Source: Cetorhinus maximus (taxonomy: Eukaryota). From it: a stretch of DNA of 44,677 nt. The notes beneath the pieces were generated by a model. That model was not told the DNA's origin and did no database searches. It saw only the letters and a list, made by a program, of their open reading frames with translations. The position numbers and the translations under genes were made by a program. Every line of letters begins with the position of its first letter. Position 1 is the first letter of the stretch. Shown piece after piece: positions 679-28,170 of the stretch. Location of the stretch: NCBI RefSeq assembly GCF_964194155.1, contig NC_135908.1, forward strand, positions 15,891,324 through 15,936,000, in the 5' to 3' direction.

Positions 679-819
679 AGTTCTGTGTCAAGAGCCAGGC
701 AGTCTGTCCAAGGCAGCAGAATTTGCGAATCACTTCCAGCTGGGTGTTATTTAGTGTGATCAAGGACAGGGTTGTAACATTCCAAACAAACAAATTGGAC
801 CAGCTAATTAATACATAAA

Positions 820-1205
820 GGACTTGCATTTATATAGAACCTTTCACAACTTCAAGATGCCCCAAAGTGTTCGACAGCCACTGAAGTACTTTTCAAAGAA
901 TATCCAATGCTATAATGCTGAAAACGTGCCATCCGGTATACTAACAGCAAGGTCCCACTCAGAAATGAGGTAACAGCCAGGCCATTTGTTTTTAGTGATG
1001 TTAGCTGAGGGTTAAACATTGGCCAGGACACTGGGGAGAGCTCCCCTGCTCTCCTTCAGTATACTGCATTCACCTGAAAGGACAATGGGACCTCAGTTTA
1101 ACACCTCACCCGAAAAGACAGCATTTCTAACAGTGCAGCCTCCCTCAATCTTCTGCCTCAGAGGTGAGACTGCAACAATGGAGCCATGGGCCATTGCACA
1201 TTGAA
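820..1205 (-). mobile_element. Deu-domain SINE (SacSINE1/AmnSINE-like), degraded
   Basis: Minus-strand tail TATATAAATGCAAGTC; core TGAGGGTTAAACATTGGCCAGGACACTGGGGAGA..CACCTGA..GTTTAACACCTCA; similar to copies at ~10.0, 14.0, 19.4 and 39.1 kb. Confidence 0.7.
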
Positions 1206-1269
1206 CCAGGGCTGATGCCTAACACAGAGATTTAGATCTTTCTCATGCGATCTCGATTACCCTTTTGAG

Positions 1270-1490
1270 TTCTCTGGATATGGGTGACACTGGGCAAGGT
1301 TGGGTTTTCTGACCAAGATGGGGATGACCACACAGTTTTGAAAGGGAGAGGGCACGTGTGAGGAGACAGACCATTTATAACGTCAGCTATCATGAGGCCG
1401 GCAAAGGAAAGTTGAGTGGTCAACAATTTAATAGGGATTGGGTCAACACAGCAGGAGGTGGATCCCGTGGAGGGAGGGTATCAGGGAGGC
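1270..1490 (-). mobile_element. L2-clade LINE ORF2 fragment (pre-RT region)
   Basis: Minus translation TSCCVDPIPIKLLTTQLSF..MIADVING..PLPFK resembles the L2 motif TSCxLDPIPTxLL...IVNxSL...FK. Confidence 0.7.
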
Positions 1491-1878
1491 AGCAGGTTGC
1501 CATGGCAGGTAAGTGAGGAAGAGGGTGCCCCAAGATGGCAGCGTCCTCCTTCCAACTTTGTTAAATTTAAAATAAAAACAAATCAAGCAACCAGACCACC
1601 ATCATGGAAAAACCAAGTTGGGCTTCCAACACTTGGCCCTAAGTGGTCAATGACAGTGAGTTGGCCACCAGCCGCTGGCAGGTGGGTAACCCTGCCACTG
1701 CCCCTACCACACCCCCTCCCCCCATCCTATCCCATGCCATCCCATCCCGCCTCCAGGAAAATGACCCGGGGTGGGGGGGTGGGGTGGAACGGAGCCAGGG
1801 GAACCAGCACGCCGACTGGTTTATTAGGAATTTCTGCCTCCATACCCATCCTCAGCAAGGGCCTAAAAACTCAGCCCC
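1490..1878. mobile_element. Probable non-autonomous PIF/Harbinger-type DNA element, partial
   Basis: GC-rich block ending AAAACTCAGCCC, matching the GGGC(T/A)GAATTTT-type termini seen on other elements in this window. Confidence 0.35.
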
Positions 1879-2328
1879 ATATGTGAAATAAACATATCAA
1901 CGAGTTAGTGACTTTGTTTTATTCGGCTTAGTAAGCTTTATGGACTTTCTTGAGCCATGGCGCGTCACAGGCGACAATACTTAGCGCAGTTACTTATAAC
2001 ACAATCGCCACTTTTCCAGAAGTAGGACTGGGCGGAGAACACTGCCAAACAGCGGGGTTCTACAACAGTGAACATGATTAAAGATGGCACCCGGTTCCTG
2101 CTCCTCTGCTGTCCTCCTATTAACCTGGGAATTCTCTCTGCCAGCGCCTCTCAGTAACTGCATCTCCCAGGATAGCTGAACCTGCCTTGATGCTTTCCAA
2201 TTTCAGAAAGACAGACACCAGGATGTTTATTGCGTATTAATGAGTGTTCAATTGTGGTTGAGCTTGGTGGCCACTAACTGGGGGGTTCACTTATGCCCCA
2301 ATTTATAGGAGCAGCTTAGCCAGAAGAG

Positions 2329-2468
2329 CTTCATCAGCATCCAAACCCGACATTTTAATTTAGTTACTTGAGGCTCCTTTAAATTTTTGTCTTTTTGTCA
2401 CAGTGTCCCTTTAAGGGGGCTGTCACTTTAATTAGCTTATCTTTTGCTTGATTGGTTTCCCAAAGAGA
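2329..2468 (+). mobile_element. Tx1-clade LINE 3' tail, copy A (very short)
   Basis: GACATTTTAATTTAG ORF-end motif shared with copies B and C, T-rich 3'UTR ending CCCAAAGAG; flanked by identical TATAGGAGCAGCTTA at 2304 and 2472. Confidence 0.6.
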
Positions 2469-2489
2469 TTGTATAGGAGCAGCTTAACC

Positions 2490-2789
2490 TGCGCCTGTGC
2501 CTGGCTAAAGTGGCCATTAGCAGGAGCAGTTGAGGGGGGTCATTAGACCCGACTGTCTGCCTCTCTCTTCCGTGGTTACATCCACGCCCGGGTATCCCTG
2601 GAGAGGGGGCATGCGGTGTCCACCGGTACACTTAAAGCCTTCCGCGACTGGTGGACACTACAGGGCCTCGAGTGCATCATCTTCACCCATAATGACATTT
2701 TATTAAGTTACCATTGAAGTTTATTTTTACAGCACCCCTTTCTGGGATGGTCCTTTACTTAACTTTTTTGTTCATTTGGTACTCAAAGG
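2490..2789 (+). mobile_element. Tx1-clade LINE 3' end (ORF2 C-terminus plus 3'UTR), copy B
   Basis: Frameshifted translation LAKVAISR..VIRPDCLP/LFRGYIHARVSLERGHAVSTGTLKAFRDWWTLQGLECII resembles the Tx1 ORF2 C-terminus; T-rich UTR follows. Confidence 0.75.
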
Positions 2790-2845
2790 TGTAAATAGGA
2801 ACAGCTGACTGACTGACTCACTCAGTTACATCTGGACCCAGTGGT

Positions 2846-2921
2846 GAGAAAGTATGTGGTATCCATTAATACATTTGAGGCCTTCTGTGACTGCTGAGCA
2901 CCAGGAGGACTGCGGTGTCAT
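2846..2921 (+). mobile_element. Tx1-clade LINE 3' end, copy C, left part (split by Gypsy)
   Basis: GTATGTGGTATCCATTAATACATTTGAGGCCTTCTGTGAC..GCACCAGGAGGACTG aligns with copy B GCATGCGGTGTCCACCGGTACACTTAAAGCCTTCCGCGAC..CAGGGCCTC. Confidence 0.65.
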
Positions 2922-3149
2922 TGTTATAGAGTTGATCTTCTAGACTTTTCTTAGTGGACACATTTAACTTTACTTACAAGGCAGCAGCAGCAACAACACG
3001 TGTGCATCAAACTCTATAACTAAAGATGAACTCTCTACTAGAGTTTCCCGCGCTTCTAACCCATTGGTTTACACAGATCACGTGATCTTACAACACAGGA
3101 TTATCCTTAAAGTTACAGTCTTACGTTTATCAGAGCTATAATTACTACA
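2922..3149 (-). repeat. Gypsy 3' LTR
   Basis: TGTTATAGAG...ATTACTACA (plus strand); direct repeat of 7322-7553. Confidence 0.95.
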
Positions 3150-3160
3150 TTCCTCCCCCT
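3150..3160 (-). promoter_or_regulatory. Polypurine tract (PPT)
   Basis: Minus strand AGGGGGAGGAA immediately before the 3' LTR TGTAG. Confidence 0.9.
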
Positions 3161-3235
3161 TTAACTTTTCTGTACAGTTTGTATTTACAAGGATATTTAT
3201 CTCATGACATTACAATATTTACACAGGTCACAAAA

Positions 3236-6200
3236 TTACAAGTTCAGTCTTTCAGGGGGTTTCCTGATCCGTGTGGAATGTCGCAGCTCCATGACTTCCG
3301 ATTCTTTGGCAGGAACCATGTTCTCTGGAACCGCGTTAACATCAGATACATCATTAGGCACAGACAGTTCAGTGTCTTCCACTCCGACAGAGACATCGGG
3401 CATGTCTATCCTTGACTGAGCAACTTCAACAGGAATCACAGGTTCAGCAATGGTTACAGGTGGAACATCATTTTGTTGGGGTATCTCCCTTCTTCTTAAA
3501 CGATCCACATGCATATGGGTGATCCGGCCTTCCACTTCCACGTGATAGGACAATGGTCCGGTCACAGAGCTTACTTTACCAGGTAACCACTTCGTTCCTC
3601 CACCGGAATTCCTTACATATACTGCTTCTCCGACAGGAAATTGTCGCTCACAACTATACAAATCCTGAGTCGCTTTTTGGCTCCCTTGACTTTTCTCCAC
3701 CTTCCCCTCCAAATTGGGAAGTATCAGGCTTAGTCTTGTTCGAAGACAGTGCCTCATCATTAATTCTGCAGGTGTTGCGCCTGTCGTAGTGTGAGGGGAG
3801 ATGGGGGGGGGTGGTTGTTCTGTAGTGAAATAGGAAATGAGCAAGTTTAGTTTCCAACCATTCACCTGTTAACTTTTTCATTCCCGCCTTAAAAGTTTGT
3901 CCTGCTCTTTCCGCCAGTCCGTTAGATGGCGGATGGTACGGTCCAGTCTTCACATGGTTGGTACCAGTGATGCTGTCAAATCTTTGAAACTCAGCGCTAG
4001 TAAACGCAGTACCATTATCAGAGACGATTACCTCTGGCAATCCATAAGTGGCAAAGCTCTGGTGTAGTTTTTCTATAGTAGCGCCTGACATTGCCAACTT
4101 TACCTCATAAACATCTAACCACTTGGAATGAGCATCTATAATCAGTAGAAACATGGTTCCAAGGAAAGAGCCAACGTAATCTATGTGCCAATCTCACCCG
4201 GGGTCTACCAGGCCACTCCCATGGGTGTAATGGGGCTGCCACCGGCAACTTCTGTAGCTGTTGACATTGCACACAGTGTTTAACCACCTTCTCAATATCG
4301 CCATCCATTCCCGGCCACCAAATATAACTTCGCGCTATCGTCTTCATTCATGAGCTTCCCGGATGGGCACTGTGTAACTCTACTAAGAGTGGTTCCCTTC
4401 CTTGTGAAGGAACTACTACTCGTGCACCCCATAATAGAATACCATCTTGACTGCTCATTTCGTGTCTTCAGTTGAAAAATGGCTTCAATTCATCAGAGAC
4501 TGGTTCCTGGGACCATCCATTAACACTTGGTCTCTCACTCGAGACAGGACTGGATCATGATTCGTCCGGTTTCTTATCTGCCTGGCACAGACTGGTGAAG
4601 AATCCAGGAAATTCATCACTAACATGAGCTCTTGGGACATGGTCATTGTTCTCTTGAAAAGGAAGGTGACTTAGGGCATTGGCATTGGCTATATGAATCC
4701 CTGGTCTATGAACAAAGGTGTATTCATGTGCTACCAAAATTAGGGCCCATCTTTGAATTCGTGCAGAAGCTATGGGTTATGTATGTGTGTATTGCCTTTT
4801 CCTCGTTAAACAGACCCAAAAGTGGTTTGTGGTCTGATGCTATTGTGAAGTGTTGCCCTTGCGCGTATTGGTGGAAATTTTTTTACACCAAAAGTAATCG
4901 ACAGACCTTCCTTTTCGATCTGAGAATATCCTTTATCGGTAAATATCCTGGATACATATCCTGTCGGCCTCTCTGTACCATCGTCCATTTTGTGAGATAG
5001 TACCGCTCCCATTCCATAGCGGGACGCATCGCAGATTAGCACCAATTCCTTCATCTGGTCATAATGCACTAACAAATTTGAAGAGTGTAAGAGCTTTTTG
5101 ACTTTCATGGGGTGACTTTCAAACCCAGCGCTGGTTTTTCTTTAGCAGTGAGTGTAGAGGGGCTAGAACTGTTGGTAAATTTGGTAGAAATCGGCCATAA
5201 TAATTTACCAAACCTAAAAATGATTTAAGTTCAGAGGCGTCCTTAGGTGCAGGTGCCTCTCTGATTGCTTTAACCTTCTCGTCAACCGGGTGTAACCCTT
5301 GGGCACATACCCAGTGGCCCAAATAAATAACTTCATTTGCCTGAAAAGTGTATTTTTCCTTCTTTAGGCGCACTCCTGCTTCTAAAAATCGTTTCAGGAC
5401 TTCCTCTAGATTAGCCAAGTGTTTCTTTTCTGTCAATCCAGTTATTAGTACATCGTCCAGGTAGACCATAACTTGAGGTCCCTGTAACAAGCTCTCCATC
5501 ATCCTCTGGAAACTGGTACAGGCCAAGGAAACACCGAGGGCAGGCGTGTGTATTGATATAATCCTTTGTAGGTGTTTATGATCACAAGTTGCTGATATGC
5601 GTGACTCACGTCAAGCTTTGTATACGTTGTCCCTCCTGCTAGTTTGGCATGGAGGTCTTCAGTCTTGGGAATAGGGTACCTGTCCAGTTTGGTTGCTTTG
5701 TTGACCGTTAGTTTATAGTCCCCACAGATCCGGATGGTCTGGTCTGTTTTAGGACTGGGGCTATGGGTGCTGCCCACTCTGAGAACTGAACCGCTTTTAT
5801 GACCCCCAGCCTCTCTAGCTGGTTCAACTCAGCGTCAACCTTCTCTCCCAGGGCGTATGGTGCCCATCTTGCTTTCAAGGAGTGAGGAGTTGCTTCTGGG
5901 TCCAGGTAAATCTTGCCCTGTAGGCCTTGGATTTTCCCAGTTCATCCTTGAAGAGGGTGTCGTATTTTTTCAGCAGCTCTGGCAGTCCCCCTGCTCGCAA
6001 CTGGGAGATTTCGGACCAGCTTAATTTAATCTCTTTCAACCTAGAAGGCTTGGCCCTTCACCTTCTACCACCATCACTGGGAGCTGTGCCGATTGGTGTC
6101 TATAATGAACAGTTACTCTGGTGATACCTTTTACCTGGATTTCTCCACCTGTGTACGTTTTCAACTTGGCAGATGATTGTTCCAAATTTAATTGATGATC

Positions 6201-7222
6201 ACCTTTATTTAAATATCTGAAAGTGTGTTCTCCTACTACAGTGGTAGAAGCACCCATGTCTATTTCCATTTTTAAGGGTTTACCATTCACATGCACTGTG
6301 ACAACTATTGCCTCTGTCTTCCCAGCTTTCTTGTTGAATAATGAATAAATGTCAGAATTGGTTGCTTCTGGCTCTTCCACACTATAGACTTCATTGGACT
6401 TCGATTATTGTTTGGAAGCCTGTTGAAATCTCGCTTTGCGCCATCTCATTATGTGCCCATTTCCGTGACAAAAATAACATTCTACTTTTTAAAATTGCCA
6501 ATCGTTAGGAGCATGACTGTTTCCGAGTTGATAAAAATTAGTTTTCAAATTCGCTGCTAAGCTGTTTCCTCTCAATTTTGGGATGTTTCCCGCTTCGTGG
6601 CGGCCTCCCAGCTTTTCACGCCGCTTTCAGCTGACTGTTCCCACCCAACTAGGAGAATGACGCCATTTCGCGCACCTTGAAGCACTTTTGAATCCCTTAC
6701 AGCACTTTCCATCGCAAGCGCTATTTCTAAATAACTTTCTTAAAACCAAGATCCACTTCAGCCAGCAATCTTCGCTGAACAGCAACCTCCCGCACGCCAC
6801 AGGCCAAACGATCCCCGATCAAGTCATTCAGGATTTCACCGAAATCACAATATTCTGCTGGTTGTTTTAATTTCACCACATAGGTAGCAAGGGTCTCCCC
6901 TGGGGCTCTATTCCATGAATTGAACCTGAACCTCTGCATTGTGACTGAGGGCTTGAGTTGAAAATGCCCCTTAACGAGGTCCACTAATTGACTGAAGGTC
7001 TTCGAATCTAGGGCACTGGGGGGCTGTCAAGCTTTGAATTAGACTGTAGGTCTTGCTCCCATAAATACACAGGAGAATCGTTCTCCTTTACCCACACCCC
7101 CCACCCCCCCCCCCAACCCCCCATATTTCATTTGCTTGAAAGTAGAATGTAAAACGTTCTATATATTGAGACCAGTCACTTGTGGCTGGCTCAAAGGGAT
7201 CGATTCTGCCAAACTTTGGCAT
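3236..7222 (-). pseudogene. Gypsy gag-pol polyprotein, multiply frameshifted
   Basis: ATG at 7222 (MPKFGRIDPFEPATSDWSQYIERF); CCHC-type knuckle ECYFCHGNGH (~6450-6490) plus a decayed first knuckle; protease EIDMGAS; RT YLDD; RNase H CDAS..YSQIEKE; integrase HSAHPG..CVQC, IDAHSKW, VSDNG, SNGLAER; C-terminus LRHSTRIRKPPERLNL. Confidence 0.93.
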
Positions 7223-7305
7223 TTTGGATGAGTATATCTTCTTTTCTTTTTAATGAACTTAGATACTTACAATCACTGGGTGAGGTACAGCACCGAATCT
7301 GATTT

Positions 7306-7318
7306 ATCCTCGTCGCCA
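7306..7318 (-). promoter_or_regulatory. Primer-binding site complementary to tRNA-Ser(GCT) 3' end
   Basis: Minus TGGCGACGAGGAT, 3 nt from the 5' LTR; vertebrate tRNA-Ser(GCT) ends ...ATCCTCGTCGCCA. Confidence 0.85.
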
Positions 7319-7321
7319 GTT

Positions 7322-7553
7322 TGTTACAGAGTTGATCTTCCAGACAACTTTTCTTAGTGGACACACTTAACTTTATTTACAAGAAAGCAGCAGCAACTAC
7401 ACACGTGCATCAAGCTCTATAACTAAAGATGAACTCTCTAGTCGAGGTTCCCTGTACTGCTAACTCATTGGTTTACACAGATCATGTGATCTTACAACAC
7501 AGGATTATTCTTAAAGCTACAGTCTTATGTCTATTAGGACTATAATTACTACA
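7322..7553 (-). repeat. Gypsy 5' LTR
   Basis: TGTTACAGAG...ATTACTACA; about 25 substitutions and 2 indels versus the 3' LTR by hand count. Confidence 0.95.
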
Positions 7554-7683
7554 GACACTGGGAATGACATTTTAATTCAAGTTATTACGTTTCCTTTAAA
7601 GTTTGCATCCATTCATTTCTTTTTGTTACAAGAGGACAGGCGCGTCTCTCTCAACTGAGGGACTAAATTGGTTTATAAAAGAG
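7554..7683 (+). mobile_element. Tx1-clade LINE 3' end, copy C, right part
   Basis: GACACTGGGAATGACATTTTAATT (DTGNDILI) continues the ORF end interrupted at 2921; UTR ends TTATAAAAGAG. Confidence 0.65.
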
Positions 7684-7879
7684 GTATCCTTGTGGAGCAG
7701 ACCTGAAACTGTAGTTGTTGGGTTTGGAGATACACGTTTTCAACAGCTCTGTAAGTAAGAGCTGATTGGTGTGTAAAAATTTGGCTCTACCTCCATCCTT
7801 CACTTCCCAGCCAACTTGGTAAAACGCAGGACAACCTGTGATGCTGCCTTGTTGGGTGATTGGCAACGCAATGGCCATC

Positions 7880-9020: not shown

Positions 9021-9108
9021 GTCTTACAAAAACAGCATCAAGTTAAAATATGATTGCCCCACATTCATTTTTGAACAGGTGTGTTTTTTAAAACTGTTTT
9101 TGGCGCTT

Positions 9109-9631
9109 TGAACTTTGAACCATTGTCAATGTTACATTGACCTTTGAACCATTGTCTATGGTGTGTTGAACTTTGAACCACTGTCAGTGGTGCATTGACC
9201 TTTGAACCACTGTCTGGCATATTGAACTTTGAACCATTGTCAATGGTGCAGACCTTTGAACCACTGTCTATGACATGTTGAACTTTGAACCATTGTCAAT
9301 GGTTTTTTTCTATTATTCGTTCATGGGATGTGAGCTCCACTGGCTAGGCCAGCATTTATTGCCCATCCCTAATTGCCCTTGAGAAGGTGGTGGTGAGCTG
9401 CCTTCTTGAACCGCTGCAGTCCATGTGGTGTAGGTACACCCACAGTGCTGTTAGGGAGGGAGTTCCAGGATTTTGCCCCAATGGCAGTGAAGGAATGGCA
9501 ATATATTTCCAAGTCAGGATGGTGAGTGACTTGGAGGGGGACTTCCAGATGGTGGCATTCCCATCTGTCTGCTGCCCTCTGATGCATTGACCTTTGAACC
9601 ACTGTCTATGGCATGTTGAACTTTGAACCAC
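9109..9631. repeat. 29-bp minisatellite, 9 units with strict A/B alternation, interrupted by a LINE tail
   Basis: Cores TGA(A/C)CTTTGAACC at 9109, 9138, 9167, 9196, 9223, 9250 (AGACC variant), 9279, 9588 and 9617. Confidence 0.9.
9304..9580 (-). mobile_element. CR1-group LINE (partner of the tRNA-headed SINE), 3' end
   Basis: ORF end SWNSLPNSTVGVPTPHGLQRFKKAAHHHLLKGN* then GGGATGGGCAATAAATGCTGG..CACATCCCATGAACGAAT and an A-rich tail. Confidence 0.85.
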
Positions 9632-15043: not shown

Positions 15044-15420
15044 TTTTCTTTTATTCTTTCTTGGGATGTGGGGGTCGCTGGCAAGGCCAGTATTTGTTGC
15101 CCATCCCTAACTACCCTTGAGCTGAGTGGCTTCCTAGGGCAATACAGAGTCAACCACATTGCTGTGGGTCTGGAGTCACATGTAGGCTAGACCAGGTAAG
15201 GACGGCAGATTTCCTTCCCTAAAGGGTGTTAGTGAACCAAATGGGTTTTTACAATAATCAATGATAGTTTCATGGTCGCCATTACTGAGACTGGCTTTCA
15301 ATTCCAGATTTATTGATTGAATTTAAATTCCACCAGCTGTCGTGGTGGGATTTGAACCCATTTCCCCAGAGCATCAGTCTGGATTACTCTGGATTACTCG
15401 CCCAGTGGTGTTACCGCTAG
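15044..15420 (-). mobile_element. tRNA-headed SINE
   Basis: Reverse-complement homologue of 11916-12300; B box appears as GGATTTGAACCC. Confidence 0.88.
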
Positions 15421-21137: not shown

Positions 21138-21740
21138 CATACCTTGAAGTCCCGAGTGAAGTGCAGCCCAGCAGGTGCACGTCGCTTATGTGCTGTTGTG
21201 AAACACGTTGGTGTGGTTTCCCGCCGACGTGGGCAGACGATCCATTGGGAGGGGACAATTCCAGAAGGCTGGCCCAATATTGACATGCTGACGTATTACA
21301 GTGAGGTTCCCGGCGTCCGATGGCAGAGAGTGTGGCCCACCAGCAGCAAGCTGAGCAGACCATCACAATCTGGTTTCACGCCATCGTGAAACTGATCGCA
21401 CCATATTCCCGTGCCGATGGGCATGGAAAATCCCCGCCATTTTGCTTCCTAGGTCAAGAAAATGGATCATTTTGTTTTATGCCTCCATGTACAATTCTTA
21501 AAGGCTACTGAAAATTTCACAATGTTCATTTTCTTCTTATTCGATTTCATATCGAATTAACATCCTTAGCAGTGAACTTTGTTAATTATTACTTGTTTTA
21601 ATACCTATGGTGACTTTTTAAAAATAAATATTAAAAATATACATTATAGGTTTTTTGATTCTACAGGTGATGCACATCCACACAATACCTGGATACTGGT
21701 GCCCCAAATAAAACACATTCTGCATACGGAAGAAAATTAT

Positions 21741-24101
21741 TAGAGGAAACATTGCCCCACACTTCCGCCATTGGAGGGAACATTGCCCCACACTCCCGCC
21801 ATTGGAGGGAACATTGCCCCACACTCCCCCCATTGGAGGGAACATTGCCCCACACTCCCCCCATCGGAGGGAACATTGCCCCACACTCCCGCCATCGGAG
21901 GGAACATTGCCCCACACTCCCCCCATCGGAGGGAACATTGCCCCACACTCCCCCCATTGGAGGGAACATTGCCCCACACTCCCCCCATTGGAGGGAACAT
22001 TGCCCCACACTCCCGCCATTGGAGGGAACTTTGCCCCACACTCCCCCCATCGGAGGGAACATTGCCCCACACTCCCCCCATCGGAGGGAACATTGCCCCA
22101 CACTCCCGCCATTGGAGGGAACATTGCCCCACACTCCCCCCATTGGAGGGAACATTGCCCCACACTCCCCCCATTGGAGGGAACTTTGCTGCACACTTCC
22201 CCCCATTGGAGGGAAAATTGCCCCACACTCCCCCCATTGGAGGGAACATTGCCCCACACTCCCCCCATTGGAGGGAACTTTGCTGCACACTTCCCCCCAT
22301 TGGAGGGAACATTGCCCCACACTCCCCTCATTAGAGGGAACTTTGCCCCACACTCCCCCCATTGGAGGGAACATTGCCCCACACTCCCCCCATTGGAGGG
22401 AACATTGCCCCACACTCCCCCCATTGGAGGGAACATTGCCCCACACTCCCCCCATTGGAGGGAACATTGCCCCACACTCCCACCATTGGAGGGAACATTG
22501 CCCCACACTCCCCCCATTGGAGGGAACATTGCTGCGCACTCCCCCCATTGGAGGGAACATTGCCCCACACTCCCCCCATTGGAGGGAACTTTGCCCCACA
22601 CTCCCCCCATTGGAGGGAACTTTGCCCCACACTCCCACCATTGGAGGGAACTTTGCCCCACACTCCCTCCATTGGAGGGAACATTGCCCCACACTCCCCC
22701 CATTGGAGGGAACATTGCCCCACACTCCCACCATTGGAGGGAACTTTGCCACACACTCCCCCCATTGGAGGAAACTTTACCCCACACTCCCCCCATTGGA
22801 GGGAACATTGCCCCACACTCCCCCCATTGGAGGGAACTTTGCCCCACACTCCCTCCATTGGAGGGAACATTGCCCCACACTCCCCCCATTGGAGGGAACA
22901 TTGCCCCACATTCCCCCCATTGGAGGGAACATTGCCCCACACTCCCCTCATTGGAGGGAACTTTGCCCCACACTCCCCCCATTGGAGGGAACTTTGCTGC
23001 ACACTCCCCCCATTGGAGGGAACATTGCCCCACACTCCCCCCATTGGAGGGAACTTTGCCCCACACTCCCCCCATTGGAGGAAACATTGCCCCACACTCC
23101 CCCCATTGGAGGGAACTTTGCCCCACACTCCCCCCATTGGAGGGAACTTTGCCCCACACTCCCCCCATTGGAGGGAACTTTGCTGCACACTCCCCCTATT
23201 GGAGGGAACATTGCCACACACTCCCCCCATTGGAGGAAACTTTGCCCCACACTCCCCCCATTGGAGGGAACATTGCCCCACACTCCCCCCATTGGAGGGA
23301 ACTTTGCCCCACACTCCCCCCATTGGAGGGAACTTTGCTGCACACTCCCCCTATTGGAGGGAACATTGCCACACACTCCCCCCATTGGAGGAAACTTTGC
23401 CCCACACTCCCCCCATTGGAGGGAACATTGCCCCACACTCCCCCCATTGGAGGAAACATTGCCCCACACTCCCCCCATTGGAGGGAACTTTGCCCCACAC
23501 TCCCCCCATTGGAGGGAACATTGCCCCACACTCCCCCCATTGGAGGGAACATTGCCCCACACTCCCACCATTGGAGGGAACAATGCCCCACACTCCCCCC
23601 ATTGGAGGGAACATTGCCCCACACTCCCACCATTGGAGGGAACTTTGCCCCACACTCCCCCCATTGGAGGGAACATTGCCCCACACTCCCCCCATTGGAG
23701 GGAACATTGCCCCACACTCCCCCCATTGGAGGGAACTTTGCCCCACACTCCCCCCATTGGAGGGAACTTTGCCCCACACTCCCTCCATTGGAGGGAAGAT
23801 TGCCACATACTCCCCCCATTGGAGGGAACTTTGCTGCACACTCCCCCCATTGGACGGAACATTGCCCCACACTCCCCCCATTGGACGGAACATTGCCCCA
23901 CACTCCCCCCATTGGAGGGAACATTGCCCCACACTCCCCCCATTGGAGGGAACATTGCCCCACACTCCCCCCCATTGGAGGGAACATTGCCCCACACTCC
24001 CCCCATTGGAGGGAACATTTCCACACACTCCCCCCATTGGAGGGAACAATGCCCCACACTCCCACCATTGGAGGGAATTTTGCCCCACACTCCCACCATT
24101 G
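21741..24101. repeat. 31-bp minisatellite, ~76 units (GGAGGGAACATTGCCCCACACTCCCCCCATT)
   Basis: Directly visible, near-perfect tandem units with point variants. Confidence 0.99.
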
Positions 24102-24297
24102 GTCGGCCATCACATACATCTTTTCTACCACCTTCCCTAGCCACTTTGAAAGTAAACAGACTCAACATCACCTGACTGGATGATCACTGACTGTCAGTGA
24201 AACACATATTCACCTCCTACACCACATTCCCATCTCCACTCACACCCACCCCACCACACCCCACCATTCCATATTTTTATAACCAGCAAACAAAAAT

Positions 24298-27794: not shown

Positions 27795-27900
27795 CGGTTT
27801 ATTAATTGCGTTTAATTGTTTAGAGGTGGTGGGCATTAACTGAGGATTCACTTATGCTTCTATAAATAGGAGCAAAATGAAACTAGGGTTGGTCAGTTAG
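27795..27900 (+). promoter_or_regulatory. TATA box + Inr-like element homologous to the Tx1 insertion site
   Basis: TATAAATA at 27861 and TCAGTT at 27893; upstream ~70 bp resembles 2235-2313. Confidence 0.45.
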
Positions 27901-27959
27901 AACACTCATGGAGGGAATGTGTATCTCTATGAATAAGAAGCTTAAGTGTGTATTGATTA

Positions 27960-28170
27960 CCTACAGTGACATCCTTCACTGCCTGGCTTTCTGTATGGAA
28001 ATATTCCATACCCATCAACCAGTGGAAAAAGTTTTTCCCAATCTAATTAATCAATTATTTTCAAAAATCCTACAAACCTCAACCAAATCATTCCTAAATC
28101 TTCAATATTCCAGGGAATACAAGCCCAATGTATGCAATCTCTCCTCATAATCCAACCCCCAGAGCCATGG
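27960..28170 (-). mobile_element. CR1 ORF2 fragment
   Basis: Minus DYEERLHTLGLYSLEY*RFRNDLVEVCRIF. Confidence 0.7.

Follow-up and report, generated by a model that had tools for sequence, protein, structure and literature searches.

The analysed stretch of DNA, referred to as the window, comprises 44,677 nucleotides of the Cetorhinus maximus genome (NC_135908.1, positions 15,891,324 to 15,936,000, forward strand), and all positions without a locus name are those of the window. Three copies of long interspersed elements (LINEs) of the Tx1 clade were found there side by side at one site, and this target is, as judged from its sequence, the TATA box of a long terminal repeat (LTR) of a Ty1/Copia retrotransposon. 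The locus is most probably a single solo Copia LTR (2224-7826) with three independent 5'-truncated Tx1 insertions at the TATA box. In the genome-wide survey, the targeting of the Copia LTR TATA box by Tx1 was preferential: strong, though not absolute.

Results

Organization of the locus

The features of the locus and of a related empty LTR are the following (UTR, untranslated region; ORF, open reading frame):

2219..2223, + strand: left 5-bp target duplication of the solo Copia LTR (CAGGA); an identical copy at 7827-7831
2224..2299, + strand: left half of the solo Copia LTR (U3 side), begins with TG; profile match 2230-2299, E 8e-5; 76% identity to the empty LTR at 27800
2300..2318, + strand: Tx1 target duplication 1, the decayed LTR TATA box; 17/19 letters in common with duplication 2
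2319..2467, + strand: Tx1 copy A, final ORF2 codons and 3' UTR, 5'-truncated; tail profile match 2323-2467, E 9e-20
2468..2486, + strand: Tx1 target duplication 2, read from the sequence; motif copy at 2472
2487..2789, + strand: Tx1 copy B, ORF2 C-terminus and 3' UTR, 5'-truncated; tblastn match to the intact ORF2, tail profile match 2670-2787
2790..2808, + strand: Tx1 target duplication 3, nearest to the TATA word of the empty LTR; read from the sequence, motif copy at 2794
2809..2921, + strand: 5' part of Tx1 copy C, decayed ORF2 end; assigned by eye against B and relatives, start approximate
2922..7553, - strand: decayed Gypsy-type LTR element within copy C; LTRs 88% alike (204/233), RVT_1 at 5122-5610, rve at 3657-4193
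7554..7684, + strand: 3' part and tail of Tx1 copy C; tail profile match 7554-7683, E 6e-15
7685..7700, + strand: Tx1 target duplication 4, the most decayed TATA copy; position set by the following LTR right half
7701..7826, + strand: right half of the solo Copia LTR (R-U5 side); profile match 7703-7811, E 3.6e-14, end set by the flank duplication
7827..7831, + strand: right 5-bp target duplication of the solo Copia LTR (CAGGA), identical to the left copy
27795..28000, + strand: empty LTR, same subfamily as the split one; its TATAAATAGG site is intact and represents the pre-insertion state; contiguous left and right profile matches 27800-27859 and 27878-27997, ends approximate

The first-pass annotation of this DNA had described three same-strand, 5'-truncated Tx1 tails, each with a copy of one motif. 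Both observations were confirmed: the Tx1 3'-tail profile matched the window three times (2323-2467, 2670-2787 and 7554-7683) and motif copies are situated at 2304, at 2472 (an identical 15-mer) and at 2794 (3 mismatches). The boundaries given there were broadly retained, with A now placed at 2319-2467, B at 2487-2789 and C from about 2809, instead of 2846, to 2921 and on to 7554-7684. The fourth motif copy, which had been regarded as very weak, is real (7685-7700): it is followed by the LTR right half, just as the first motif copy is preceded by the left half. The sequences outside the first and the fourth motif are two halves of one repeat, split by the Tx1 copies A, B and C and bordered on each side by the 5-bp CAGGA flank.

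Copy B was 56% identical to aa 1249-1296 of the ORF2 of an intact Tx1 from the same genome (tblastn, E 5.5e-10). The identities between the tails were only 77% (A/B), 64% (A/C) and 60% (B/C), which indicates separate copies and not a tandem duplication, in agreement with the first-pass annotation, where distinct subfamilies had been proposed. The target duplications 1 and 2 share 17/19 letters, 2 and 3 share 13/19, and the fourth is the most decayed. This increasing likeness of the pairs from right to left suggests that C was probably inserted first, followed by B and finally by A. The Gypsy-type element landed in C. This element, with its RT domain preceding the integrase on the minus strand, is a later insertion outside the targeting system.

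The exact 15-mer of the window was not enriched in the genome, resulting in 7 matches in 4 Gb, 2 of these in the window; the flanks of the other 5 sites had no blast match to a Tx1 tail or the LTR. The 15-mer is a decayed copy of the LTR word TATAAATAGGAACAG and a poor probe genome-wide.

Identity of the target element

The best 40 of 2217 candidates from the search with an intact LTR copy were scored. The scored copies were about 215 bp long, started with TG, ended with TAACA and held TATAAATAGGAACAG and AATAAA. The profiles of the LTR halves were made from empty copies only. Among the 18 empty LTRs with both ends called, the 5-bp flanks matched in 4-5 of 5 letters in 5 cases, two of which were near-duplicate loci. 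A polypurine tract was found before the 3' LTRs and a primer-binding site (PBS) after the 5' LTRs (C-type example L175), and upstream of some LTR copies there was an RNase H-like frame as well as a purine tract.

With the RNase H-like frame as the query, 150 relatives were scored. Among 18 longer Copia pieces, RVT_2 was detected in 3, an upstream rve in 2 and a copia gag, below the cut-off, in 1. The RVT_2 domain, the upstream integrase, the weak copia gag and the tRNA-Met-type PBS identify the target element as Ty1/Copia. The RNase H stretch was found adjoining a C-type 3' LTR; alone, this 97-aa stretch had no match in Pfam or PDB. The LTR subfamily of the window is tied to the elements with RVT_2 by the common PBS and by L117, whose RNase H stretch gave 60-66% identity. 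The function of the target word as a TATA box is suggested by its letters and its place in the LTR.

The PBS of the Copia elements matched the GalEa PBS TGGTAGCAGAGC in 11/12 letters, a comparison that concerns the PBS alone. The target resembles the GalEa-like Copia element CoRex1 (PMC3587641) in the PBS (TGGTAGCAGAG, complementary to tRNA-Met, 11/12 letters), in the LTR length (about 215 vs 217 bp) and in the TG..CA ends present in both. The GalEa likeness concerns the target element and not the inserting Tx1.

Genome-wide survey of Tx1 tails

The three window tails alone, with no LTR sequence included, were used as queries, and the best 29-30 blast hits per query were taken. After the removal of 3 self hits and 2 duplicates, 85 loci were kept. 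The tail profile, cut at the last word of the element, detected full 3' ends at 65 loci, while 20 were broken. The full tails led directly into the LTR right half in 36 cases; another tail, or a right half further on, came next in 15, and neither followed in the remaining 14. TATAAA (≤1 mismatch) was situated at the junction of 46/65 full tails, compared with 3.5% of random positions. The LTR right half was on the strand of the tail at 56/85 loci and on the opposite strand at 2/85 (Fisher p 2e-20). Several Tx1 subfamilies were inserted in several LTR subfamilies, nearly always in the LTR orientation. The junctions are therefore not random, randomness being an outcome that the first-pass annotation had named as a refutation, and the TATA-like target proposed there was borne out, with its identity added and with a specificity that is strong, not absolute.

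According to the main text of Kojima 2015 (PMC4494074), a family is regarded as target-specific when more than 20% of its flanks are of one type. This value was exceeded by the 36/65 full tails (55%), and also, at no less than 36/85 loci (42%), when the broken tails were counted as misses.

The exact junction word had 416 matches in the genome vs 22 for the reversed control. In the first 30 of these loci, 13 continued directly into the right half and 11 into a stack or a later half, and 6 into neither. The TATA-box targeting covers at least several hundred genomic sites. In the search from the LTR side, with right-half queries, a Tx1 tail was found at the TATA box of 6/29 A-type and 2/29 C-type LTRs. 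Intact LTRs amounted to 21/29 and 24/29, respectively, and empty sites were common.

Structure of the junctions

The 3' end of the Tx1 element is (C)TCAAAAGAG, and the TATAAA of the LTR comes directly after it. At 34 loci both LTR halves were present with an insert between them, and the sequence after the left half recurred after the tail. At 17 single-tail loci, columns 1-14 of the duplication matched in 59-94%, column 15 in 47% and the columns beyond in 6-35%. The target duplications are 14-15 bp long and start at TATAAA. The smallest inserts between two TATA copies were about 11 bp (L326) and about 17 bp (L324) long, and the largest insert, at L343, reached about 6.5 kb. In the set of inserts of 153-2145 bp outside the window, the lengths differed at nearly every locus, and the truncation points were independent. 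The outer 5-bp flanks of split LTRs with both ends called matched in 4-5 of 5 letters in 10/29 cases, which indicates that the LTR was present before the Tx1 insertion.

The known general working of LINEs with an apurinic/apyrimidinic-type endonuclease (APE) was taken as the basis for a possible insertion scheme. The APE domain would nick the bottom strand at the 5' edge of TATAAA, priming reverse transcription, and a second nick would follow 14-15 bp further on. Each duplication would rebuild a target, and as both copies could be used again, the insertions would stack; such serial insertion into a regenerated target, suggested already in the first-pass annotation, was supported by the junction survey. 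The tails outside LTRs also tend to lie at TATAAA-like words (8/14), so the core word TATAAA is probably read first, and the LTR or a longer context may raise the insertion rate. The Tx1 endonuclease likely placed the insertions during target-primed reverse transcription. The endonuclease of Tx1L was sequence-specific in vitro (PMC1950540).

Four long TATA-type copies were extended and one of them, L343, was near full length and decayed; its ORF1, APE and RT are flanked by the two parts of a split Copia 3' LTR. Promoter capture, in which the duplicated TATA would drive a full-length LINE, was considered and not supported: in L343 (n=1), the 5' UTR is long and is not preceded by a TATA copy.

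Clade membership and the intact sister family

A young Tx1 family of the same genome (L223, at G000:C14:46128300-46138200, and L221-L240) has an intact ORF1 of 717 aa and ORF2 of 1296 aa. In the ORF2 of L223, Exo_endo_phos and RVT_1 were detected above the cut-off and zf-RVT below it. The TATA-type copy L343 matched both the ORF1 and the ORF2 (aa 1-1296) of L223, in pieces. A 141-aa decayed ORF2 end had no match among longer proteins when used as the query, and the intact sister ORF2 was used instead. Its best named full-length match was the Xenopus Tx1 149 kDa protein (50%). In the tree, the copies of this genome grouped with Xenopus Tx1 and two other proteins (ultrafast bootstrap, UFBoot, 98-100); three fish or unnamed relatives served as the comparison, the tree having no L1 outgroup and an alignment anchored on L223.

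The copies of the young family are often in head-to-tail arrays. Their tails had TTACA next to them at 62/69 junctions, in mixed flanks, and an A- or C-type LTR right half was present at only 1/49 loci. A DDE_Tnp_4 transposase was located beside one copy (L231:1310-1999), which suggests that the preferred site of this family is likely inside a Harbinger-like element, the link being present at one locus only. An origin of the TTACA family from within the TATA families was not supported, as the tree, with an alignment anchored on one TTACA copy and decayed fragments, gave sister clades (UFBoot 79 and 100 for the TATA clade).

A younger Copia subfamily

In a younger Copia subfamily (L242-L312), with LTR pairs 80-97% alike, AGAATAAAAAG takes the place of the TATAAA of the older LTRs. 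Among 70 Copia loci chosen by RNase H, 45 had AGAATAAAAAG-type 3' LTRs, 7 had readable TATA-type ones and 18 were not classified. The 3' LTRs with AGAATAAAAAG were interrupted there in 0/45 cases, whereas 2/7 of the TATA-type ones were filled (Fisher p 0.016); in comparison with the LTR-based samples, the corresponding values were 0/45 and 8/58 (Fisher p 0.009). The TATA-less LTRs are also younger, the median nearest identity being 0.92 vs 0.87-0.88. Age is thus a confounding factor, and an escape from Tx1 and simple timing are indistinguishable.

Passengers and other repeats

A short interspersed element (SINE) with a tRNA head and a Tx1-like tail end was observed at TATA sites (L173, L313, L319), at TTACA sites (L197, L208, L212, L231, L236, L239) and also at L256. 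Up to three of these were stacked at one LTR TATA box, with 14-bp duplications. This SINE is likely a passenger of Tx1. The complete coding sequence of a histone H2B (Pfam Histone) was present at L133:1090-1500 as an intronless frame with a cut 3' UTR. It lies precisely at the TATA site, with one half of an A-type LTR on each side and no clear duplication, and may derive from a host mRNA that the Tx1 machinery delivered. The 5' LTR of L263 had an insert of about 300 bp of no assigned type, 16 bp after the Copia TATA, with an AATAAAA word at the end and with neither a duplication nor a Tx1 tail.

Elsewhere in the window, a 31-bp unit is repeated 76 times in tandem at 21739-24102 (93% matches), and a 29-bp minisatellite is located at 9108-9303. 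An abundant SINE-like repeat was found in both orientations at about 12111, 15044-15384, 18295, 20514, 21067, 30450 and 38909.

Discussion

Several observations weigh against the targeting of the Copia TATA box by Tx1. Neither an LTR nor a second tail was downstream of 14/65 full tails, and the 20/85 loci with broken tails were left out of the 65-tail count. The best-hit sample was small and biased to well-preserved copies. A same-strand left half was within the 1.5-kb flanks in only 29/85 loci. The outer flanks did not match in 19/29 split LTRs, where the end calls were crude; this procedure missed even the perfect CAGGA pair of the window LTR. The single full-length copy, L343, has no 5' duplication. 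An intact TATA-type ORF2 was not found, the protein search resulting mostly in the young TTACA family. RVT_2 was seen on elements with a sister LTR subfamily, to which the subfamily of the window is linked as described above.

The alternative that survives best differs from Copia LTR targeting in degree only: the Tx1 families would prefer the short word TATAAA(G/T)AG anywhere, either through nicking or because the 3' end of the RNA pairs with the primer, and the word would merely have its commonest carrier in the Copia LTRs. Such a preference is consistent with the 8/14 off-LTR tails at TATAAA-like words, with the duplication at a TATAAA word in unrelated DNA at L017 and with the sister family, which keeps TTACA in mixed flanks. 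However, by simple arithmetic 4 Gb should contain between tens of thousands and millions of copies of an AT-rich word of 6-9 letters, and the LTRs number only thousands (772-3135 first-look candidates per query), yet 55-78% of the tails are LTR-linked. A longer recognition sequence or the LTR context is therefore needed, and the short word as a sufficient explanation is considered improbable.

The joint spread of tail and LTR as one unit, either by Copia LTRs carrying a Tx1 piece or by read-through 3' transduction of Tx1, is very improbable. The partial matching of the types (A tails to A-type LTRs in 9/11 cases, C tails to C-type in 9/15) would agree with it, as would the many filled loci that had no left half within 1.5 kb; the type matching also fits shared age. 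Joint spread is contradicted at the loci holding both LTR halves. The insert lengths vary from locus to locus, the right halves extend to the TAACA end, the outer 5-bp flanks match across split LTRs, and in the window the A and B tails sit in a C-type LTR. The remaining alternative, that the motif belongs to the Tx1 element itself, at its 3' or 5' end, and that the stack is a local duplication, accounts for TATAAA after most tails but is refuted, since empty LTRs carry the motif without any Tx1 sequence, the 5' ends that follow the motif are truncated at many different positions, the three tails differ as given above, and the full-length L343 does not begin with the motif; the first-pass annotation had named such a motif within the element as a refutation.

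Insertion of Tx1 at a Copia TATA box extends what has been described for the clade. The term "unrecognised Tx1 target class" used in the first-pass annotation was too strong, because the main text of PMC4494074, in which Tx1 targets are listed, already reports two crocodilian families of the Keno/Tx1-Mar group, Tx1-8_Crp and Tx1-4_AMi, that prefer specific groups of LTR retrotransposons (Kojima 2015). That main text names neither the LTR superfamily nor the site, and contains neither "TATA" nor "shark" as a word. Compared by this description, the LTR-retrotransposon preference is the same, and the present system adds a base-precise Copia TATA site with a 14-15 bp duplication. The literature search, which covered titles and the openings of abstracts and had Repbase Reports and most subscription journals outside its scope, revealed no description of Tx1 at an LTR TATA box or in Copia of cartilaginous fish.

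The closest named full-length relative is Tx1L of Xenopus laevis (P0004), to which the intact sister ORF2 is 50% identical over 100% of its length. Like the TATA-type Tx1, Tx1L targets another transposon; its target is the DNA transposon Tx1D (PMC1950540), whereas that of the TATA-type Tx1 is an LTR promoter. The young sister family resembles Tx1-9_AMi, for which the main text of PMC4494074 gives a Harbinger DNA transposon preference. The reported site of Tx1-9_AMi lies at a distance of about 300 bp from the 5' end of Harbinger, while that of the sister family appears internal and was linked to Harbinger at one locus only.

A transposon chase, in which Tx1 parasitised Copia promoters, younger Copia escaped via AGAATAAAAAG and the sister Tx1 moved to TTACA, likely in Harbinger, is a speculative and rather unlikely scenario. 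If it were true, this genome would contain the two specificities in endonucleases with an identity of about 60%, of which one is intact.

Given the age and decay of the TATA-box Tx1 copies, no host function is implied. Through the present results, the brief remark on LTR preference in the literature becomes a defined target: a Copia TATA box, with a fixed orientation and a 14-15 bp duplication. The Tx1 system also brings passengers, the tRNA-head SINE and one histone H2B retrocopy, next to the TATA box. The intact sister family with its different target word provides a natural pair for finding the residues of the endonuclease responsible for specificity, which bear on site-specific retrotransposon tools.

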